Shown one piece after another: positions 6,801 through 30,610 of a DNA stretch of 36,507 nt. The notes beneath the pieces were generated by a model, which was not told where the DNA came from, did no database searches, and saw only the letters and a program-made list of their open reading frames with translations. The stretch's first letter is position 1. The number at the start of each line of letters is the position of its first letter. Origin of the DNA: a virus; the IMG/VR virus record IMGVR_UViG_3300047321_000299; one strand, 5' to 3'. Position numbers and translations under genes: made by a program.

Positions 6801-7658
6801 TCAGGTGGTGGCGAGGGTGCCGACGCACACACCGCGGTCGTTGAGGCGCTTGACGGCGTAGTGCATGGTCGTGGTGACGACGGTCGAGCGGGCGAGGATG
6901 TCGCGGTCCGACTCGACCAGCGGGCGCCGCTTGTAGAGCAGGCCAAGCGCGTTGTTCTTGAGCAGCAGAAACTTGCCCGCGGTGATCCGGTTCGTGATGA
7001 ACACGGGCACGCCACCGATCCGGCCGATAGAGCCGGTCACGGCCGCGGACGCACCGTTGCCGAGCTTCGCCGCGTCGACGAACTGCGCGTCGGCCATGGC
7101 CTCGGCGAGCTGAACGCTGTTGAGGTACAGGCCGGCGAAGTCGGACGGCTCCCACTCGTCGCCGAACTGGCCGATGGCGGGCACCATCGAGTCAGCCCAC
7201 GTGAACTTGGTCTTGCCCGTGGCGGTGGTGAACGCGAACGGAGTGCCGCCACCCTGCGCGGTCTCGTTGGCCTGCGCCTGAGCGATCAGCGCCGCGTCGA
7301 CCTTGCGGGCGGCGAGGATGCCGAACTGGCGGCGGGCCTCGGCCTCGGGGTCGCCGAGGGAGGTAAGGCGGGCCTTGTCCGTGATCTCGACCGCCTTACC
7401 GGCCTCCTTGATCGTGGCCGTGGCGTCCGCCGTCGACATGGCGGTCGGGGTCATCGCCGTGGTCTCGGTGAGGTCGTCGAGGTCGCCGATCGCCCCCCAC
7501 TTCGGGAAGTTGACGGTGTCGCCGGGGGCGCCCTCAAGGGTGTTGTCCTCGATGACGGCGGCCGATCCGGCGACGCGGACCTGTCCGACGAAAGACGCCT
7601 GCGCCATGTCGCCCCACACCTCGGGGTTGATCACAGCGGCTGCGGTGGTCTGAGCCAT
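6801..7658 (-). CDS. Major capsid protein (285 aa, no delta domain)
   Basis: It sits immediately downstream of the scaffold gene. A GGAGAGAG SD lies upstream. The size and composition fit a scaffold-dependent HK97-fold capsid protein. Confidence 0.8.
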   Translation of the reverse strand: MAQTTAAAVINPEVWGDMAQASFVGQVRVAGSAAVIEDNTLEGAPGDTVNFPKWGAIGDLDDLTETTAMTPTAMSTADATATIKEAGKAVEITDKARLTSLGDPEAEARRQFGILAARKVDAALIAQAQANETAQGGGTPFAFTTATGKTKFTWADSMVPAIGQFGDEWEPSDFAGLYLNSVQLAEAMADAQFVDAAKLGNGASAAVTGSIGRIGGVPVFITNRITAGKFLLLKNNALGLLYKRRPLVESDRDILARSTVVTTTMHYAVKRLNDRGVCVGTLATT

Positions 7659-7727: not shown

Positions 7728-8435
7728 TCAGGAACCGGCGAGGCGCCGGTACGTGTCGGGGTCGGACTCGTACAGCGCGGTGCGCGCGGTGTAGTCCATG
7801 GCGGCGAACTGGGCGGGGGTGACCTCGCCGTTTCCGCCGCTGGTGAAGTCGGCGCCGCCGCGGGAGGGCCCGGCGGCGCGGGCGGCGAGGTACGGCTGTG
7901 CGGTGATCGCTGCCTGAATCGCCGCGGTGACGGCCGCGGGGTCGGTCGGGTCGATGGCGGCGAGTGCTGCCATGGCCGATGTGCTGTCGAGCAGCGCGGC
8001 CGGATCGGCGCCGGCCGCGGCGGCGGTGGTGTAGACGGCGGACTGAACGGCGGCCCGCTGGGTCGCGGCCTGTCCGTCGGTGACGAGTCGCTGTGCCCAC
8101 TGCGGGAGACGCTCGACGGCGCCCTCGGCGATCGGCTCGGGCGCGGTCGGCGTGGGCTGCGGCGGCTGCCCGGCAGTCTGCGCCCGGGTCCGGTACTGGG
8201 CTGCCTCGGCGCGGGTGTTCGCGATGAGCGTCTGCGCCCATGCGGGCAGGCTGGCGACGTCCTGCGGCTCACCCTGCGGGGCGGGCTGTGCGGGCGTCTG
8301 CGGCTGTGCGGGCGCGGCCGGGTCCTGCGATGCGGGTACGGCGGCCGGGGCGCCCTGCGGGGCGGTGGCGGCCGGGGCGGCGGGTGCGGGTGCCGGGGCG
8401 GCGGGTGCCGGGGCGGTGGGGGTCGGGGTGGACAT
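7728..8435 (-). CDS. Scaffolding protein (235 aa)
   Basis: The internal ATG at 8435 has a CAGGAGGG SD. The N-terminus is Pro/Ala-rich and is followed by a helical Ala/Gln-rich body. It lies directly upstream of the capsid gene. Confidence 0.65.
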   Translation of the reverse strand: MSTPTPTAPAPAAPAPAPAAPAATAPQGAPAAVPASQDPAAPAQPQTPAQPAPQGEPQDVASLPAWAQTLIANTRAEAAQYRTRAQTAGQPPQPTPTAPEPIAEGAVERLPQWAQRLVTDGQAATQRAAVQSAVYTTAAAAGADPAALLDSTSAMAALAAIDPTDPAAVTAAIQAAITAQPYLAARAAGPSRGGADFTSGGNGEVTPAQFAAMDYTARTALYESDPDTYRRLAGS

Positions 8436-8554: not shown

Positions 8555-8728
8555 TTAGGCGTCGTCGTCGCCCTCGGTGGGGCGAGGCGCGGTGCCTGCG
8601 TAGCCGCGAATCCACGCGGTGCGCAGCACGCTGGTGCGCGGGTACGGGCATGCGGTCGGGGGGTTGCCTTGGCGCCCGGCCTCGGCTCCCTCGGTCACTG
8701 CCCGTGCGATGTCCTCGCGCGTTCCCAT
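8555..8728 (-). CDS. Small Rmf/CrpP-like protein (57 aa)
   Basis: ATG 8728 is preceded by GGAGATGAGG and lies 10 nt after the MuF stop. The translation is MGTREDIARAVTEGAEAGRQGNPPTACPYPRTSVLRTAWIRGYAGTAPRPTEGDDDA. The pattern G..AG..G.....CPY........W..G matches the ribosome-modulation-factor/CrpP fold signature. It is below the track length cutoff. Confidence 0.6.
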   Translation of the reverse strand: MGTREDIARAVTEGAEAGRQGNPPTACPYPRTSVLRTAWIRGYAGTAPRPTEGDDDA

Positions 8729-8737
8729 GTGCTGACC

Positions 8738-10951
8738 TCATCTCCGGTTCTGGTGGTCGGACTCATTCTTACGGGCACCGGATGCCCACCGCTGGGCTTG
8801 GCCGGTGGCCTTCTCGATGAACTCGGCCTGCGTCATGCGGCCGTGTTCGGCCCACCACTCTTTCAGCTCGTCCGACGCGTTCGCGTGGGCGATGCGTGCC
8901 GGGCCAGAGAACAGGGTTATGGGTGCTCGGCCGGCCGCTGCTGCCTTCTTGCTGAGCAGCACACCGCGTAGGTCTTCCTCGGCTTGCAGGTACTGCCGGT
9001 AGATGTACTCGTCGTACAGCTCGCGGGCCTGCCTGCGGGTCAGGAGGGGTGCCGCCTCGGCGGCCTCGGCTCCTCCTGCCTCGGCGACGGCTTCGGCGAG
9101 CTGCTCGGCGAACGCTGCGTCGTCGGCGAGGGCGCCCCACCCTTCCGGGTCGGGGGCGGGGTCCATCGCTTCGGCGAGCGCGTTGCGGTCGGCGAGCAGG
9201 TCGTCGACGGCGTTGCCGGTCGCGGCCGGGTGCGGGAGGTCGACGGCGTCGCGGCTGTCCATCTCCCCCGCAATGCGCAGGATCTCGTCGGGGTGGGCGT
9301 ACTGCATGCACCATGCGAGCTCGTCGTCGCCGACCTGGTCGAGGTCGGCCCGCAGCTCGCCGCTGGGGAAGTGCTGGGCGAGCAGGTCGCGGCGGTGTGC
9401 CTCGGCGGCGAGGGCGTCGCGGTCGGCCGGTGCGTCGCGGTAGCGGGCGGCGAGCTGGTCGTCGGACAGTCCGTGGAGATCGCGGCGCGCCCCGGGGAGT
9501 TGTCCGGCGCGGTCGCGGCGGTCCAGCTCGGACATGACGCGTAGCGCGTCGCTGTCGTCGAGGTGGCCGAACACTTTGCCGAGCTCCTGGTCGGACAGTC
9601 CGAGCAGGTCGTCGGTAAGGCGGCCGCCGGGGGCGGCGCGGTCGAGCAGGGCCTGTTGGTCGCGGCGGTCGGCCTCGGTCTCGATGCGGGCGCGGTCGCG
9701 TTCGGTGAGCTCACCGTGTCGCATGGCGGCTGTCAGCTCGTCGTCGCTCATCTCCCGTGGGGTGAGGTCGTCGCCGGATCGGATGCGGGCGGCCTGCTGT
9801 GCCTCCTCGGGGACCGGGCGGCGAGCAGGGGGGAGGTTCGAGGCACCGGGCTGCTCGCGCTTGGGGTTGCGGCGTAGGTCGGGGTGGGCGGCGAGGTGCT
9901 CGCGCTGGGCGCCCTGCCACTGCCTGACCTTGGCCTCGGCCGCGCGCTTGGCCTCGGGGGAGGTGGCGGCCGCGGCGCGGTTCTTGTGCTTTCGGATGTT
10001 GCGTTCGATGGCGCGCTGCCGTTGGCCGGCCTCGTATCCGTCGGGGTCGCTCTCGGCGTCCTCGGTGCGGGTGAGCCCCGGGGTGTACGCCGATACGGAG
10101 TGACGGCAGTTGGGGTGCTGGAATCCGGCGCGGCGGGCCTCGTCGAGCGATCCGGCGACCCTGACGGGGACCATGCGCCCGTCCTCGATGGCGTGCTCGG
10201 CCTCGACGGTGCGGGCTCCCTCGGCGCCGCTGATCGCCAGTACCTTGCCCTCCCACGGGCGGCACAACGGGCACTCGCGCGGTGCGTTGGACACCACTAC
10301 GAACTGCACTCCGGCCGTGTCCAACGTGCGCATGTGGGCCTCGGTGGCGGCGCGCCCGACGCTGGTGCGCACCGCCATTTCCGCGTACGACGTGAGCTGC
10401 CAACGGCGGCCGGCGCGGTCGCGAAAGCCGGTGATGCCCTCGTCGGCGAACCGGCGCATGGCGTCCTGCGTGGCCTGGCGGCGCGTGCCGGTGCCGAGCA
10501 GGGGCGTGGCGGTGACCTCGGCGACGATGCCGCGGTACCGGTCGTCGACGGCCCGCAGAATGCTGCGGTGGGTCGCGGTGATCCGGTCGACGGTCTCTTG
10601 TGCGAGGCGGTCGACGGCCTGCGCGTTCGGGGTGACGTCGTCGACCAGGCGGCGGGCGTCATCCGACAGTGCGCCGAGCTCGGCGACGGCGGAGCGGTGC
10701 CCCACGTTGTACGCCTCGGCGACCACGTCGAACACTTCCAGCGTGGTCGCCTTGCCGAGCTCGCCGACAACGGCCTGCGAGGCGCGGCGTACGGCCTGCA
10801 CGGCGGACAGCTTCCGCTCGACCCATCCCGGGGCGTCGAGGCCGTCGGCGAGCTGGCGGGCGATGATGCCCAACAGGCGCTGCTCGGCCTGCTCGTACAG
10901 GTCGCGGGTGCCGGTGGCGAGGTCCTCGACCATGCCCGGATGGATCGCCAC
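8738..10951 (-). CDS. MuF-like (SPP1 gp7 family) minor head protein with a 350-aa-plus C-terminal extension (737 aa)
   Basis: The core ...RRWQLTSYAEMAVRTSVGRAATEAH...VVVSNAPRECPLCRPWEGKVLAI... is the Phage_Mu_F signature. GTG 10951 lies 7 nt after TAAGGAGGG. The 83 aa further upstream in the track ORF overlap the portal gene and are Pro/Arg/Ser junk. Confidence 0.85.
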   Translation of the reverse strand: MAIHPGMVEDLATGTRDLYEQAEQRLLGIIARQLADGLDAPGWVERKLSAVQAVRRASQAVVGELGKATTLEVFDVVAEAYNVGHRSAVAELGALSDDARRLVDDVTPNAQAVDRLAQETVDRITATHRSILRAVDDRYRGIVAEVTATPLLGTGTRRQATQDAMRRFADEGITGFRDRAGRRWQLTSYAEMAVRTSVGRAATEAHMRTLDTAGVQFVVVSNAPRECPLCRPWEGKVLAISGAEGARTVEAEHAIEDGRMVPVRVAGSLDEARRAGFQHPNCRHSVSAYTPGLTRTEDAESDPDGYEAGQRQRAIERNIRKHKNRAAAATSPEAKRAAEAKVRQWQGAQREHLAAHPDLRRNPKREQPGASNLPPARRPVPEEAQQAARIRSGDDLTPREMSDDELTAAMRHGELTERDRARIETEADRRDQQALLDRAAPGGRLTDDLLGLSDQELGKVFGHLDDSDALRVMSELDRRDRAGQLPGARRDLHGLSDDQLAARYRDAPADRDALAAEAHRRDLLAQHFPSGELRADLDQVGDDELAWCMQYAHPDEILRIAGEMDSRDAVDLPHPAATGNAVDDLLADRNALAEAMDPAPDPEGWGALADDAAFAEQLAEAVAEAGGAEAAEAAPLLTRRQARELYDEYIYRQYLQAEEDLRGVLLSKKAAAAGRAPITLFSGPARIAHANASDELKEWWAEHGRMTQAEFIEKATGQAQRWASGARKNESDHQNRR

Positions 10952-10964
10952 GGCGGCACCCTCC

Positions 10965-12449
10965 TTACATGGGGAACGTGCCGACGGGGTCGGGTGCGCC
11001 TGCGCCGGTCTCGGCGAGGATCGCGGCGGCCTCGGCGGCGACGGCGGTGTCGTCCCAATCCGGGTGCAGGATCTTGACCTTGGTGCCGGTCGACACGGCG
11101 CCCGCCCGGTTGAGCAGGTCGAGGGTCGTGGCGGTGGCCTGCTCGGACTCCGCGACGCCGTCGCCGAACTCGACGCGCGGCCGCTCCGGCTTGATCGCAC
11201 GGTTGCCGAACAGGGCGGCGTCCAGTTGCAGCATGACGTGCAGCATGTCGGCGAGCGGGTGCCGCCAATAGCCGGTCTTCTTCTTCCGGGTCACCATCGA
11301 CCGCTGATCGCGGCTGTCTACCTCGGTGGCGGTGACGGCCTGGCCCTCGCCGTCGAGGCCGAGAGACTGCGCCGAATAGCCGGCCGACTGCGCGGCCTGG
11401 CGCACGATCGCCTCGACGGTGGCGCGGTGCTCCTCCACCCGGATCGCGAACTGCGACAGGGTGATTGAGTTGCCCTGCTCGGTGGGCGGGATGTTCAGCT
11501 GTTGGAAGACCTCGCGGTCGTCGTCGAAGCTGGCGCCCTCGCCGCGGCCGTTGCTGCGCAGGTAGGCGTCGGGAACGATCAGGCGGGCGCGGGCGAGGCG
11601 AATGTCGCGCATCCACGACGTCCACGTCTCGTCGAGCGCGTCGAACAGGTCGTGAACGCCACCCGCGTAGTCGCTGCGCCCGACGGGGCTGTCTCGGTGC
11701 AGCCGGTTGGGCAGCATGTTCGGCACGTAGGCGGCGGTGAGGTCGCGGATACCCGTGCTGATCGTCTGCCCGTCGCCGTCCTTGTCGAGGGACTCGATAA
11801 GGCCTGTGGTGTCGGGGTGCGCGGTGAGCGGCACAAGGCGGCCGAGGCTGTCCGGTGCGCCCTCGTACAGGCCGTGGCGGATACTGCCGCTCTCGTGCCG
11901 TTCGAGGTGCCGGTAAACGGTCTGCGTGGTGCTGCCGCTCAGCTCACGCCAGAACGTGACGGCGCGCAGCATCCCGAACCGGAACTCCGGTACGGCGCGG
12001 TCCGGCTGCATGACGGTGAGTAGGGGCCGCTCGGCGAGTTCGCGGTCCCAGGTCACGCGCAGGAACACACCGCTAAGGGCGGCGGCCTGCTCGGCTGCTC
12101 CGAGCAGCACCTGTTGCACGCGGCCCTCATCGATGAGCACCGCGAGGCGGTCCTGTGTGGCCGTGTTCTCGACGGTCAGGACGGGCATGGTGGCGAACAA
12201 CAGGTCGGCGCTGGTGCTGGCGATGTCGCCCGGCAACGGGACGTGCAGGCGGTGTTCGCGCTTGTGCGGGTGCTGGATGCGGCGGCGGCCCCATAGCGTC
12301 CGGCGCTCGTTGTGGTGCTGCGCGTGCCCGTAGACGCGGGCGAGGCGGCGGCGGTCGCCGGAGTACCACGCGTCGTCGACGCGCATCTCGGCATAGATCG
12401 GGGCCCACTGCGGGGGCGGCCACGCGGTGCCGTTCTCAGGCAGTGCCAC
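10965..12449 (-). CDS. Portal protein (494 aa)
   Basis: Size, position between terL and MuF, and overall composition all fit a portal. GTG 12449 lies 9 nt after GAGGAGG and is preferred over the TTG at 12467. Confidence 0.85.
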   Translation of the reverse strand: MALPENGTAWPPPQWAPIYAEMRVDDAWYSGDRRRLARVYGHAQHHNERRTLWGRRRIQHPHKREHRLHVPLPGDIASTSADLLFATMPVLTVENTATQDRLAVLIDEGRVQQVLLGAAEQAAALSGVFLRVTWDRELAERPLLTVMQPDRAVPEFRFGMLRAVTFWRELSGSTTQTVYRHLERHESGSIRHGLYEGAPDSLGRLVPLTAHPDTTGLIESLDKDGDGQTISTGIRDLTAAYVPNMLPNRLHRDSPVGRSDYAGGVHDLFDALDETWTSWMRDIRLARARLIVPDAYLRSNGRGEGASFDDDREVFQQLNIPPTEQGNSITLSQFAIRVEEHRATVEAIVRQAAQSAGYSAQSLGLDGEGQAVTATEVDSRDQRSMVTRKKKTGYWRHPLADMLHVMLQLDAALFGNRAIKPERPRVEFGDGVAESEQATATTLDLLNRAGAVSTGTKVKILHPDWDDTAVAAEAAAILAETGAGAPDPVGTFPM

Positions 12450-12666
12450 GGGTGCTCGCCTCCTCAAATGGGATGTGCACGGTGGTGGTCAGTACGTCGT
12501 CGCCGTGGGTGATGCGGCGGCCCTCGCGGTCGCGGACGTACAGCAGGGCGCGCACGCCGTCGTCAACGTCCAGGTGCACGCTGCGCACAAGGGACGGCGG
12601 CAGGCCGAGGGCACGGCACACGGTGCGGACCTGCTCGGTACTCAGGGCGACAGGGATGTCGGTCAT
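12436..12666 (-). CDS. Hypothetical protein (76 aa)
   Basis: ATG 12666 forms an ATGA overlap with the terL stop, and GC3 is high. Confidence 0.6.
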   Translation of the reverse strand: MTDIPVALSTEQVRTVCRALGLPPSLVRSVHLDVDDGVRALLYVRDREGRRITHGDDVLTTTVHIPFEEASTRGTA

Positions 12667-28000: not shown

Positions 28001-28039
28001 GTATCGATCACGGATGAAACATAACACGTATCGATCACG
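28001..28039. promoter_or_regulatory. Candidate operators: two copies of GTATCGATCACG (28001-12, 28028-39)
   Basis: This is an exact 12-mer direct repeat with 27-bp periodicity. It lies 11-49 nt upstream of the Cro-like ATG and brackets a TATGTT -10-like hexamer on the minus strand. Confidence 0.5.
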
Positions 28040-28247
28040 CATGGAACGACCAAGTGGAGGGGTTGACTCCGATGTGTGCGAGGTACGAGGCTTCGTAATG
28101 AGAATGTGAAAGAAGCGTGCTCAATCGAGCATGTGTGCGATAAGTTGTACGTGCAACTACTGGATAAGCGGGCGAGGGGGGACCTCGGCATGTGTGGAAT
28201 CTGTGCGCACCTGTCAAAAAACCGTTCATGCGCGATACATTGCCCGC

Positions 28248-28652
28248 ATGACAAGACCAGAGCCGCCCCTGACGGCGAGCATCGGCGAGTGGCTCGGATG
28301 GGCCCTCCCGCGCCGCGGGTACGACCTAGAAGAGCGCGGTAGCCGGGCGCGCTTCGCCGAAGCCTCCGGCATCCCCGTCGCGACGGTCTCACGACTCCTG
28401 CGGGACGCAGGGTCACCCGACGCCCGCACGCTCCTCGCAGTCGCCAAGACACTCGAAGTCCCGGTAATGCCGCTACTCGCGCGCGCCGGCCTCCTGCCAC
28501 TCGAAGAGCTCTACGAGTCCGACGCGCAAACCCCGACGAAGATCTCTTCACATGAAGCGCTAGCGGCCCTCGGCGTGACCGAAGAGGCCGACCAAATCGC
28601 AGTCCTCAGCATGATTCGCGCCCTCCGCGCAAAGGGGGAGAGCGCAACCTAG
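28248..28652 (+). CDS. cI-like XRE-family repressor (134 aa), probably leaderless
   Basis: The HTH is RARFAEASGIPVATVSRLLRDAGSPDARTLLAVAKTL. ATG 28248 has no SD. TACATT (28236-41) ends 6 nt upstream of it. The 39 codons further upstream in the track ORF are Cys-rich junk in the intergenic region. Confidence 0.75.
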   Translation: MTRPEPPLTASIGEWLGWALPRRGYDLEERGSRARFAEASGIPVATVSRLLRDAGSPDARTLLAVAKTLEVPVMPLLARAGLLPLEELYESDAQTPTKISSHEALAALGVTEEADQIAVLSMIRALRAKGESAT

Positions 28653-28664
28653 GAAGGTCCACCC

Positions 28665-28991
28665 GTGTCATCACGCACAACCCTGTACCTGACTGCCGCG
28701 CTTTCCGCCGGACTTCTCTTGATCGGCCTCACCATCCTGATCACCGGTGTACTCACGGACAGACGGGTCGGGTTGGTCATCCAGACCGGTACCACCACGA
28801 CCGCCATCGGCGTCATCGCCACCGTGGTCAACGGCTACCGGGCACTGAACGAATACATCACGTCACGCGTGGCGCACGCCGACAGCGCCGCACTCGTGAA
28901 GGCCATCGTTCAGCACGACGCCCAATTCACCGCGCCGAGCACCGTCGTTGAGTTCGACGCGGCACGACGTCAACGGGAGAACGCAACGTGA
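28665..28991 (+). CDS. Two-TM membrane protein in the lysogeny module (108 aa)
   Basis: GTG 28665 lies 8 nt after GGAAGG. The TM helices are LYLTAALSAGLLLIGLTILITGVL and TTTAIGVIATVV. About 20% of codons end in A/T, versus far fewer in neighbouring phage genes. Confidence 0.7.
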   Translation: MSSRTTLYLTAALSAGLLLIGLTILITGVLTDRRVGLVIQTGTTTTAIGVIATVVNGYRALNEYITSRVAHADSAALVKAIVQHDAQFTAPSTVVEFDAARRQRENAT

Positions 28992-30610
28992 CAGCAGGAC
29001 CAACTCAGCACGTGCCAAGCACGTTCCAGGGCTTGCCGACCGATGAGGACGGCGAGCCCTGGCTCGGTTATATCCGGGTGAGCACGTGGAAAGAGGAGAA
29101 GATCAGCCCCGAGCTGCAAGAGGCAGCCCTACGGGCGTGGGCAAAGCGCACCGGGCGCCGCCTGCTCGAACCGTTCATCACCGACCTCGACGCCACCGGC
29201 CGGAACTTCAAGCGGCGCATCATGGGCGCCATCAAGCGCGTTGAGGACGGCGAGGCGCGCGGCATCGCCGTATGGAAATACAGCCGCTTCGGCCGCAGCC
29301 GCGACGGTATCGCCGTCAACCTCAAACGCCTTGAGGACGCGGGCGGGACGCTGGAGTCTGCGACCGAGGAGGGCGACGCGCGTACGGCGACCGGCCGACT
29401 GCAACGCGGGATCCTGTTCGAGTTCGCGGCATATGAATCCGACGTGCGCGGCGAGCAGTGGAAGGAGACCCATGACCACCGCCGCTACAAACTGCACCTG
29501 CCCGCCACCGGCCGCCCCCGCTTCGGCTACATCTGGCACCCCCGCCGACTCCCCGACGGCCGCGGGGGCTGGACCACGCAAGAGGAGAGATACCTAGCCG
29601 ACCCGAAAACGGGGCCAGTCATGGCCGACCGATACCGGCAGTACACCGACGGAGACGCGTTCTATTCGCTCGTCGGCGAGCTCAACGCGGCCGGCCACCG
29701 GACGGTACGCGGCGGGCTGTGGTCCGAACAGACACTGATCCGGTACATGGACTCCGGATTTGCCGCAGGCCTGCTCCGCATCCATGACCCAAAGTGCCTG
29801 TGCAACCCAGAGACGCGCAACAACTGTCAAAACTGCCTGTTCGTCCCTGGGGCGCAAGAGGAACTGATCGATGCCGAGCTGTGGCAGCAGTACCGCGACC
29901 GCCGCGAGGAGGTGCGGAACACACCGCCGCGGGCCCGCCGTGCCACGTACATGCTGACCAACCTTGTCCGGTGCGGGCAGTGCCGCGGCACGACGCCCGC
30001 GAACTCTGCCGTGCGCGTCATCAACGACGTTCCGACCAACGTCCTCGGCTACTCGTACACATGCGGCCGGCGGGCGGTACAGGCCGCCCACGGCTGTGAC
30101 GGAGTATGGGTCAAGCGCGAAGACGTCGAGGCCGAGGTGTTGAAGTGGCTCGCCAAGGAGGCCGCCCCCGGAATCGACACCGCGCCGAGCATCCCTCAGC
30201 AGCGCATCGAGCAGCGCGACCACCGCGCCGCCGCCGCGCTCGACCGTGCCAGGCTGCAAGCCGAGGTCGACAAACATGCCGCCGCCCTCGCCAACCTGCG
30301 GGCCCAACGCGCAGCCGACCCGGACGAATTCGAGCCGGGCGAGTATGAGGCCGCCCGCGATCTCATCCGGAAGAAGCAGGCGGCGACGCAGGCCGCATTG
30401 GAACGGGTCTCTACCGTCGAGACCACCCCGCACCGCGCCGACTATGTGCCTCTGCTGGTCGGCACGGTCGCGGAGTGGCCGACGCTGGACACGCGCGGGA
30501 GAAACGGCCTACTCAAGCAGCTTGCGCGACGGGTGGCACTGGTACGCACCGAGGACGGCACAAAGGTCGTGGTGCATCCTGTGTGGGAGCCGGACCCGTG
30601 GGCCGAGTAG
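28988..30610 (+). CDS. int: Large serine recombinase (integrase, 540 aa)
   Basis: It has a resolvase-type N-domain (GYIRVSTWKEEKISPELQ..., GIAVWKYSRFGRS, RLQRGILFEFAAYES). It also has a recombinase domain, a Cys cluster (CGQCRG...CG...C) and a C-terminal coiled coil. The start forms a GTGA overlap with the upstream gene. Confidence 0.9.
   Translation: MTAGPTQHVPSTFQGLPTDEDGEPWLGYIRVSTWKEEKISPELQEAALRAWAKRTGRRLLEPFITDLDATGRNFKRRIMGAIKRVEDGEARGIAVWKYSRFGRSRDGIAVNLKRLEDAGGTLESATEEGDARTATGRLQRGILFEFAAYESDVRGEQWKETHDHRRYKLHLPATGRPRFGYIWHPRRLPDGRGGWTTQEERYLADPKTGPVMADRYRQYTDGDAFYSLVGELNAAGHRTVRGGLWSEQTLIRYMDSGFAAGLLRIHDPKCLCNPETRNNCQNCLFVPGAQEELIDAELWQQYRDRREEVRNTPPRARRATYMLTNLVRCGQCRGTTPANSAVRVINDVPTNVLGYSYTCGRRAVQAAHGCDGVWVKREDVEAEVLKWLAKEAAPGIDTAPSIPQQRIEQRDHRAAAALDRARLQAEVDKHAAALANLRAQRAADPDEFEPGEYEAARDLIRKKQAATQAALERVSTVETTPHRADYVPLLVGTVAEWPTLDTRGRNGLLKQLARRVALVRTEDGTKVVVHPVWEPDPWAE

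Follow-up and report, generated by a model that had tools for sequence, protein, structure and literature searches.

The viral DNA analyzed here (IMG/VR record IMGVR_UViG_3300047321_000299; 36,507 nucleotides (nt), hereafter the window) encodes on its minus strand (8738–10951) a MuF-like head protein of 737 amino acids (aa). We found that the long C-terminal extension of this protein is an autonomous module riding on a MuF carrier, composed of a hairpin repeat array, an acidic linker and a C-terminal domain (CTD). The most informative feature of the locus, missed by a preliminary description made from the letters of the window, is a conserved gene of the Rmf/CrpP fold directly downstream. The module represents a well-delimited new variation on the known theme of MuF-borne C-terminal modules and no new kind of system. 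We tentatively interpret it as a host-directed effector module that is anchored to the portal, packaged in the capsid and accompanied by a cognate small partner.

Architecture of the extension

The most plausible start of the gene is the GTG at 10951, which has an AAGGAGG ribosome-binding site in front of it, and the stop codon lies at 8738–8740. A Pfam scan of the 737-aa product matched PF06152 (Phage_min_cap2, the MuF2 family) over residues 5–353 (9893–10939, minus strand; E = 1.4e-65, 222 bits against a cut-off of 26.3) and returned nothing else at E ≤ 1. By profile score and portal-adjacent position, the protein is thus assigned to the MuF/Phage_min_cap2 family. As the core match ends at residue 353 and the protein at residue 737, the extension exceeds 350 aa, in line with the preliminary description. 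In a PHROG search, phrog_12049 spanned residues 1–737, i.e. the full protein length, and full-length homologues are found in 36 Streptomyces phages.

The first part of the extension is repetitive. Four tandem repeats had been proposed at 9245–9769, corresponding to residues ~395–569, and we recovered four units of ~40 aa each, in register, within residues 392–568. Inter-unit Smith–Waterman comparison gave z = 2.9–8.8 against shuffles, with only 0–38 of 2000 composition-preserving shuffles reaching the observed value, so that the repeats did not dissolve under formal statistics. A repeat hidden Markov model (HMM) detected exactly four units with domain E-values of 1e-10 to 1e-13, a result that is partly circular, as the HMM was seeded on the units of the window protein and then iterated on homologues. 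Stronger and independent support for real repeats comes from copy-number differences among homologues. In an alignment with eight phage homologues, Raleigh, Darolandstone, Tubberson, ToastyFinz and Mojorita have four units, Bioscum and SV1 have two (units 1 and 4) and Vondra has one; close IMG/VR relatives have 1–4 units, four being commonest. Unit 1 (residues 392–431; 9659–9778, minus strand, as for all units; HMM E = 1.1e-11), modelled as a helix-turn-helix, is kept in all homologues with 1, 2 or 4 units. Unit 2 (residues 443–480; 9512–9625; E = 9.8e-12) and unit 3 (residues 486–522; 9386–9496; E = 1.5e-10) are missing in SV1, Bioscum and Vondra, and unit 4 (residues 531–568; 9248–9361; E = 1.8e-13) is missing only in 1-unit homologues. 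Chance similarity or low complexity is ruled out by the agreement of shuffle statistics, HMM and copy-number variation. Tandem Repeats Finder detected no DNA-level tandem repeat left in the array, indicating that the repeats are old and ruling out a recent DNA duplication as their origin.

The unit consensus is DL...SDdeL-(10-14)-RIaAExDRRD, and the array carries a net charge of −17. AlphaFold2, run on a 43-sequence alignment, predicts residues 371–737 to be all-helical with a mean pLDDT of 89. Each unit is modelled as a short helix (SDxEL...) followed by a long helix (...AExDRRD), with pLDDT >90 through the inter-unit turns, so the structure prediction that the preliminary description had recommended points to ordered helical hairpins. 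No significant profile or fold match of the unit to known helical repeat families (FliG/MgtE-N ARM-like, SAP/HeH) was obtained. A likeness to FliG/MgtE_N was considered and dropped (MgtE_N E = 0.051, below threshold; FliG and MgtE E = 0.5–0.7; Foldseek E > 1), and the best matches of the repeat-unit profile to PDB sequences were only de novo designed hairpins.

The array is followed by an acidic linker (residues 569–637; 9041–9247, minus strand) with a net charge of −14 and a pI of 4.05, the second half of which is modelled at a pLDDT of 58–78. Its N-terminal part, LPxPAxTGNAVDDLLADRxAL, is conserved across the Streptomyces group. The protein ends in the CTD (residues 638–737; 8741–9040, minus strand), predicted to be a compact all-alpha domain of ~95–100 aa (domain-only AlphaFold2 pLDDT 84, pTM 0.72). 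With a pI of 9.45 it is mildly basic, in contrast to the acidic array and linker. The succession of an acidic linker and a terminal domain of ~100 aa is therefore as first described. The preliminary description had also failed to recognize the repeats and terminal domain, and our searches agree: the CTD has no relative in Pfam, NCBIfam or PDB by sequence profile or fold, and a profile search against PDB sequences matched neither the extension nor the CTD. Foldseek against PDB gave E > 1 for the whole extension, i.e. no significant fold match, and three matches for the CTD-only model, all at E > 4 (best E = 4.6). A structure search of BFVD returned only other long actinophage MuF-like proteins. 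As for recognizable toxin domains (nuclease, peptidase, ADP-ribosyltransferase (ART), RelA-like), none was matched by the CTD in Pfam, NCBIfam or PDB.

The extension is separable from the MuF core

The CTD is kept in all 36 related Streptomyces phages, among which the repeat number alone differs (1, 2 or 4). Across the eight aligned homologues, mean identity to the window protein is 0.67 for the CTD, 0.78 for the MuF core and 0.54–0.63 for the repeats and linker. Within this clade the extension is therefore not the swappable or polymorphic cassette suggested earlier, as the identical CTD family occurs in 36/36 related phages at an identity of 0.67 against 0.78 for the core. The comparison with actinophage MuF homologues thus separates two aspects of the cargo idea: exchange of the extension between close relatives is not seen, whereas its autonomy as a module on a MuF carrier is borne out by split genes and unrelated carriers.

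The split genes, which occur in some Streptomyces prophages, are exemplified by a Streptomyces marianii prophage with the order terminase, portal, MuF core (380 aa, PF06152), 355-aa module gene, 52-aa gene, scaffold and capsid. A word-indexed protein search recovered split-gene proteins of ~355 aa in which a different short N-terminus precedes the repeats and CTD (P0014, P0023, P0030, P0037, P0058, P0060, P0068, P0082 and P0085; also L009, 8001–9068). These versions start with a conserved ~45-aa motif, MGKAFVAKLA..GARDPEALAAWIGR.K.GK.AF, which is missing from the window protein and the fused forms; the motif may stand in for the covalent connection with the MuF core. The hairpin repeats, too, are a regular, copy-number-variable part of the module and no peculiarity of the window protein. 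Among distant CTD proteins, 109/147 contain the hairpin unit in 1–5 copies, always N-terminal to the CTD where present, and the gap between unit and CTD has a median of 68 residues.

The CTD family and its carriers

Searching by tblastn with the extension, we found that its last ~90 residues recur at the C-terminal end of otherwise different proteins. A CTD profile of 106 positions, searched against 1.84 billion representative proteins, matched 1055 clusters (50% identity) at E ≤ 1e-3 and 552 at E ≤ 1e-10, with protein lengths of 74–5140 aa. Of the 147 best matches examined, 140 have a CTD that ends no more than 25 residues before the C-terminus; one DUF3631 protein has it N-terminally. Partner domains in 53 mid-sized matches were PF06152 (17), VG15 (7) and portal fusions (4), and further 2H/LigT phosphoesterase, PF04233, ART, DUF3631, SAP and Rho_N. 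The carriers accordingly include MuF1, MuF2, VG15 and portal-fusion proteins as well as giant polyvalent proteins of 1.3–5.1 thousand residues. For instance, Adephagia gp10 (836 aa) combines an N-terminal PF25310 (VG15) with the CTD at its end, and Laroye gp17 (530 aa) has PF04233 and the same ending. Arthrobacter phage Atuin gp71 (L014, 4693–14031), encoded directly after the portal gene, comprises 3113 aa with ART and UvrD helicase domains before a terminal CTD; this polyvalent protein is annotated as 'DNA helicase', and a weak Rmf-like gene, gp72, comes next. Another CTD protein, of 3393 aa, contains a PI3/4-kinase-like domain and ART-PolyVal.

The CTD also exists alone. Microbacterium phage Pickles13 gp53 (L011, 2965–3315) is a 116-aa stand-alone CTD encoded among helix-turn-helix (HTH) genes, and a search for diverse CTD proteins returned mainly 'hypothetical proteins' of 93–200 aa from Microbacterium and other actinobacterial genomes. 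In a Microbacterium maritypicum prophage, a 100-aa CTD gene is the second gene of a rightward early operon that follows a divergent small-gene region, located after an antirepressor gene and upstream of SSB. Other viral loci have a similar neighbourhood. Stand-alone CTD genes such as those at L133 (7001–7303), L119, L121, L130 and L131 lie in early operons with HTH, antirepressor and SSB neighbours and are common in Microbacterium phages and prophages. One stand-alone version of 171 aa retains a hairpin unit before the CTD. All named sources of the CTD are Actinomycetota (Streptomyces, Microbacterium, Aeromicrobium and Actinomadura), and the viral loci mostly have 59–77% G+C. As far as sampled, the family appears confined to Actinomycetota genomes and to phages of Actinomycetota hosts.

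A conserved Rmf/CrpP-fold gene accompanies the CTD

Between the MuF and scaffold genes lies a gene for a 57-aa protein (8555–8728, minus strand), which starts 9 nt past the MuF stop codon. Its product scores above the curated cut-offs of both PF04957 (ribosome modulation factor; 55.1 bits, cut-off 27.9) and NCBIfam NF041887 (Rmf_like_phage; 77.8 bits, cut-off 40). Bona fide RMF is a gammaproteobacterial hibernation factor, and we know of no ribosome-related function shown for the phage Rmf-like family. In the literature searched, no link was found between Rmf or CrpP and MuF, the MuF C-terminal domain or phage heads. The CTD, the hairpin unit and their link to Rmf/CrpP are likewise undescribed in the libraries and literature searched.

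Of 93 close loci, 88 have the Rmf-like gene directly after the CTD gene, as do 36/36 Streptomyces phages. It is present downstream of the CTD-bearing gene in Raleigh, Vondra, the S. marianii prophage and Adephagia (gp11), and in weaker form in Atuin. In 38 diverse viral contigs, collected by a degenerate DNA pattern scan for YASEEL..WW, 5299 open reading frames (ORFs) yielded 24 Rmf-like HMM matches, and each of the 24 came right after the CTD ORF in the same orientation. Within these contigs the partner accompanies 24/28 long forms versus 0/9 short complete stand-alone forms. The short-MuF2 phages Jace, Spocter and pMLP1 have neither the CTD nor the Rmf-like gene. A tie of the gene to MuF as such is thereby ruled out, as these phages lack it and the split-gene prophage has it after the module. 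Two proteins fuse the CTD with the Rmf-like domain, namely P0141 (330 aa) and P0177 (1158 aa). The latter, a metagenomic representative, contains MuF1 (177–303), the CTD (514–614), the Rmf-like domain (653–699) and a prohead-protease-like C-terminal part of ~460 aa; a single ORF, it naturally unites the entire head-gene block. Based on the adjacency counts, the CTD-less phages and the fusions, we conclude that, in the context of long head genes, the CTD forms a conserved functional pair with the Rmf-like protein.

The Rmf-like ATG of the window shares its reading frame with the MuF stop codon TGA, from which 9 nt separate it (8729–8740, minus strand), and a GAGG ribosome-binding site lies inside the 3' end of the MuF gene. 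The same-frame arrangement occurs in only 21 of 110 pairs, i.e. it is unconserved, which speaks against programmed read-through from MuF into the Rmf-like gene and indicates translational coupling instead.

Cytotoxic homologues in cluster K mycobacteriophages

The only CTD family members with experimental data are proteins of cluster K mycobacteriophages, for which extreme cytotoxicity of the whole proteins is reported. Waterfoul gp8 (914 aa) and Amelie gp6 (851 aa) are portal-adjacent long proteins with a terminal CTD (E = 8e-23 and 1e-17), and Rmf-like genes (E ~1e-15) lie downstream of both. In whole-genome overexpression screens, no Mycobacterium smegmatis transformants were recovered with Waterfoul gene 8 or Amelie gene 6 even without induction, placing both in the strongest class of toxicity seen (PMC9339283; PMC11797047). 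A codon-2 nonsense allele of Waterfoul gene 8 rescued transformation only partly, which the authors attribute to truncated products from internal starts (PMC9339283; PMC11797047), and Hammy gp9 is homologous and 'highly toxic' according to the Amelie paper (PMC11797047). Like the window protein, Waterfoul gp8, Amelie gp6 and Adephagia gp10 have a terminal CTD, a downstream Rmf-like gene and a position between portal and scaffold genes. Unlike it, the cluster K proteins carry an N-terminal VG15 (PF25310) rather than PF06152, their CTD identity to it is only ~30%, and their hairpin unit is too diverged for the repeat HMM. With regard to toxin-domain cargo, as the preliminary description had it, a host-directed or toxic role is made plausible by the cluster K cytotoxicity, while a known or exchanged toxin is disfavored by the lack of any match and by the invariant CTD.

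Head-gene neighbourhood

The portal protein gene (10965–12467, minus strand), the upstream neighbour of the MuF gene, was recognized as an ORF with DNA similarity to annotated Streptomyces phage portal genes; its true start is possibly further downstream. The MuF gene starts 14 nt past the end of this ORF (10951 versus 10965), and the synteny is as in annotated phages. On the other side of the Rmf-like gene is the scaffolding protein gene (7728–8435, minus strand), an ORF with a ribosome-binding site, encoding 235 aa that start with MSTPTPT, and syntenic with the annotated scaffolding genes of Tubberson and Vondra. The N-terminus of its product (8100–8435, minus strand) contains ~60 residues of Pro/Ala/Gln-rich low complexity (MSTPTPTAPAPAAPAPAPAAP...). 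The major capsid protein gene (6801–7658, minus strand), an ORF similar to annotated major capsid genes, encodes a short protein of 285 aa; the scaffold is specified by a separate gene at this locus. The head region shares ~77–81% DNA identity with the Streptomyces siphoviruses Tubberson, SoJo, Raleigh, Darolandstone, Alderaan and SV1 relatives. In another part of the window, the segment at 28001–30000 has a G+C content of 0.65 versus ~0.72 elsewhere, and the GC and AT skews flip sign; a 540-aa ORF on the plus strand (28988–30610) lies in this segment, which may be an integration/immunity region or otherwise foreign.

Interpretation of the module

The portal-anchored effector interpretation, which we favor with reservation, can be laid out step by step. 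By analogy with SPP1 gp7, the MuF core would dock on the portal, so that a few copies would end up inside the procapsid and exit together with the DNA. The SPP1 portal binds gp7 and targets a few copies of it to the procapsid interior; gp7 is not required for assembly but helps infection to begin (PMC6316719). In the literature, MuF and portal fusions are seen as carriers of injected effectors (PMC5576092; PMC5512222). The CTD would be the host-directed, growth-inhibiting end, as suggested by the cluster K cytotoxicity, the stand-alone CTD genes in early operons and the CTD at the ends of polyvalent proteins. Judging from the model and the copy-number variation, the hairpin array may serve as a well-ordered acidic spacer of adjustable length. 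The 57-aa Rmf/CrpP-fold protein would then be the cognate partner of the CTD, one that either neutralizes or chaperones the CTD in the producing cell or travels along with it. Such a partner would be needed where the CTD is made late and in quantity, while other phages would express the CTD early.

Several observations weigh against this interpretation. The toxicity in cluster K is known for whole proteins, in which the N-terminal region is of another type (VG15) and the middle part is long, and the CTD itself is a small helical domain with no enzyme-like fold match in Foldseek against PDB. Natural CTD–Rmf fusions and a complete lack of polymorphism are unusual for a toxin/antidote pair. The stand-alone CTD genes have no Rmf-like neighbour (0/9), and Laroye gp17 and three other long forms are without the partner gene. 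The strict C-terminal position and constant hairpin spacing would equally suit a structural docking element, and the presence of the window protein or its extension in the virion is a prediction by analogy.

We regard a structural or assembly role as possible though somewhat doubtful. The CTD would dock on DNA, scaffold, capsid interior or portal, the hairpin array would act as a ruler or tether and the Rmf-like protein as a co-assembled cofactor, and the cytotoxicity of homologues would be an artefact of overexpression. It stays a serious rival because of the rigid C-terminal position (140/147, with constant spacing from the last hairpin) and because P0177 unites MuF1, CTD, Rmf-like and protease-like regions in one head-gene polypeptide. 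It is also consistent with the location of the gene between portal and scaffold genes and with the last CTD helices (R.T..EF....G...), which look helix-turn-helix-like when judged by eye. Other structural proteins (major capsid, tape measure) were likewise toxic in the same screens; however, the toxicity of Waterfoul gp8 and Amelie gp6 is in the strongest class and lethal uninduced. Further, a docking element does not readily account for the numerous stand-alone CTD proteins of ~100 aa in early or regulatory operons far from head genes, nor for the N-terminal CTD of the DUF3631 protein. The related MuF2 phages Jace, Spocter and pMLP1 assemble heads without the module, and SPP1 gp7 is dispensable for assembly (PMC6316719).

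We consider it unlikely that the hairpin–CTD module and its Rmf/CrpP-fold partner form an undescribed two-component host-takeover system widespread in Actinomycetota phages. In that case the CTD would be a potent growth inhibitor, either expressed early as a protein of ~100 aa or pre-loaded into the capsid on MuF, portal or polyvalent carriers, and would be kept in check by the Rmf-like protein in the producing cell. Given its fold, this partner hints at the ribosome or translation initiation as a conceivable target; it might, for instance, shield the target site instead of binding the toxin.

Still less probable is a classical MuF polymorphic toxin as described by Jamet et al. (2017), i.e. 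a cassette exchanged between lineages and serving bacterial competition, with the small ORF encoding the immunity protein. The layout fits, with MuF encoded just after the portal and N-terminal in the protein, a domain at the extreme C-terminus and a small ORF directly downstream (PMC5576092), and homologues are cytotoxic when expressed without the small gene. Yet nothing here is polymorphic, which makes such a toxin/immunity cassette improbable: one CTD is found in 36/36 related phages and >1000 clusters, invariant across relatives and carriers. In further contrast to the polymorphic toxins, no known toxin domain resembles the CTD and a hairpin array stands in front of it. The small partner belongs to a conserved Rmf/CrpP-fold family; the CTD and putative immunity protein are naturally fused in two proteins, and stand-alone CTD genes exist without the small partner. 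Several of the carrier phages searched may also lack any annotated lysogeny context.

A capsid maturation protease or protease–MuF fusion, suggested by GenBank labels (Vondra, Tubberson, SoJo, Eklok and others), by weak PHROG matches to 'head maturation protease' families and by the MuF-CTD-Rmf-protease-like fusion of P0177, is unsupported and very improbable, since no protease family matched at E ≤ 1 in Pfam or NCBIfam, the PHROG 'protease' matches are confined to the CTD and to the C-terminal end of those profiles, the extension is modelled as all-helical, and the separate scaffold gene and short 285-aa capsid protein resemble protease-less SPP1-type heads. The label 'capsid maturation protease' is attached to Tubberson gp4, Vondra gp5, SoJo, Eklok, AxeJC and other homologues, and ToastyFinz gp3 is labelled 'portal protein'. 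The protease label seems to have spread via PHROG or pham families whose members have only the CTD in common.

Relation to known systems and significance

SPP1 gp7 consists of a single domain (about 300 aa) and is not known to carry an extension or to have an Rmf-like gene next to it. The window protein belongs to the same MuF superfamily and shares the gene order portal, MuF, scaffold and major capsid with SPP1; portal binding and a role in infectivity are experimental for gp7 only (PMC6316719). The module also resembles the polyvalent proteins of Iyer et al. (2017), as the CTD ends giant multi-effector proteins next to portal genes and solo versions exist in phages, two traits that the paper reports for the domains of polyvalent proteins (PMC5512222). 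It differs in that the window protein consists of MuF and one module only, and in the fixed position of the CTD, compared with the generally free domain order of polyvalent proteins. Neither RMF nor CrpP turned up in a term search of the paper, and in the parts considered we came across no account of the CTD (PMC5512222).

For protein delivery from siphovirus capsids, the best candidates are MuF-type proteins, yet their long actinophage forms have so far been listed as an 'extension without predicted domain'. That extension is now defined as a discrete and common module, with >1000 clusters, carriers of up to 5140 aa, a fixed layout and a dedicated small partner. The widely propagated annotation 'capsid maturation protease' is corrected, and both the CTD and the hairpin unit are flagged as candidates for new domain-family models. 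The module further links to a so far unexplained toxicity, as in whole-genome screens the counterparts of the window gene in three cluster K mycobacteriophages rank with the most toxic genes. Which part is toxic, what its target is in Streptomyces or Mycobacterium, and whether the Rmf-like protein neutralizes it have thereby become directly testable questions.

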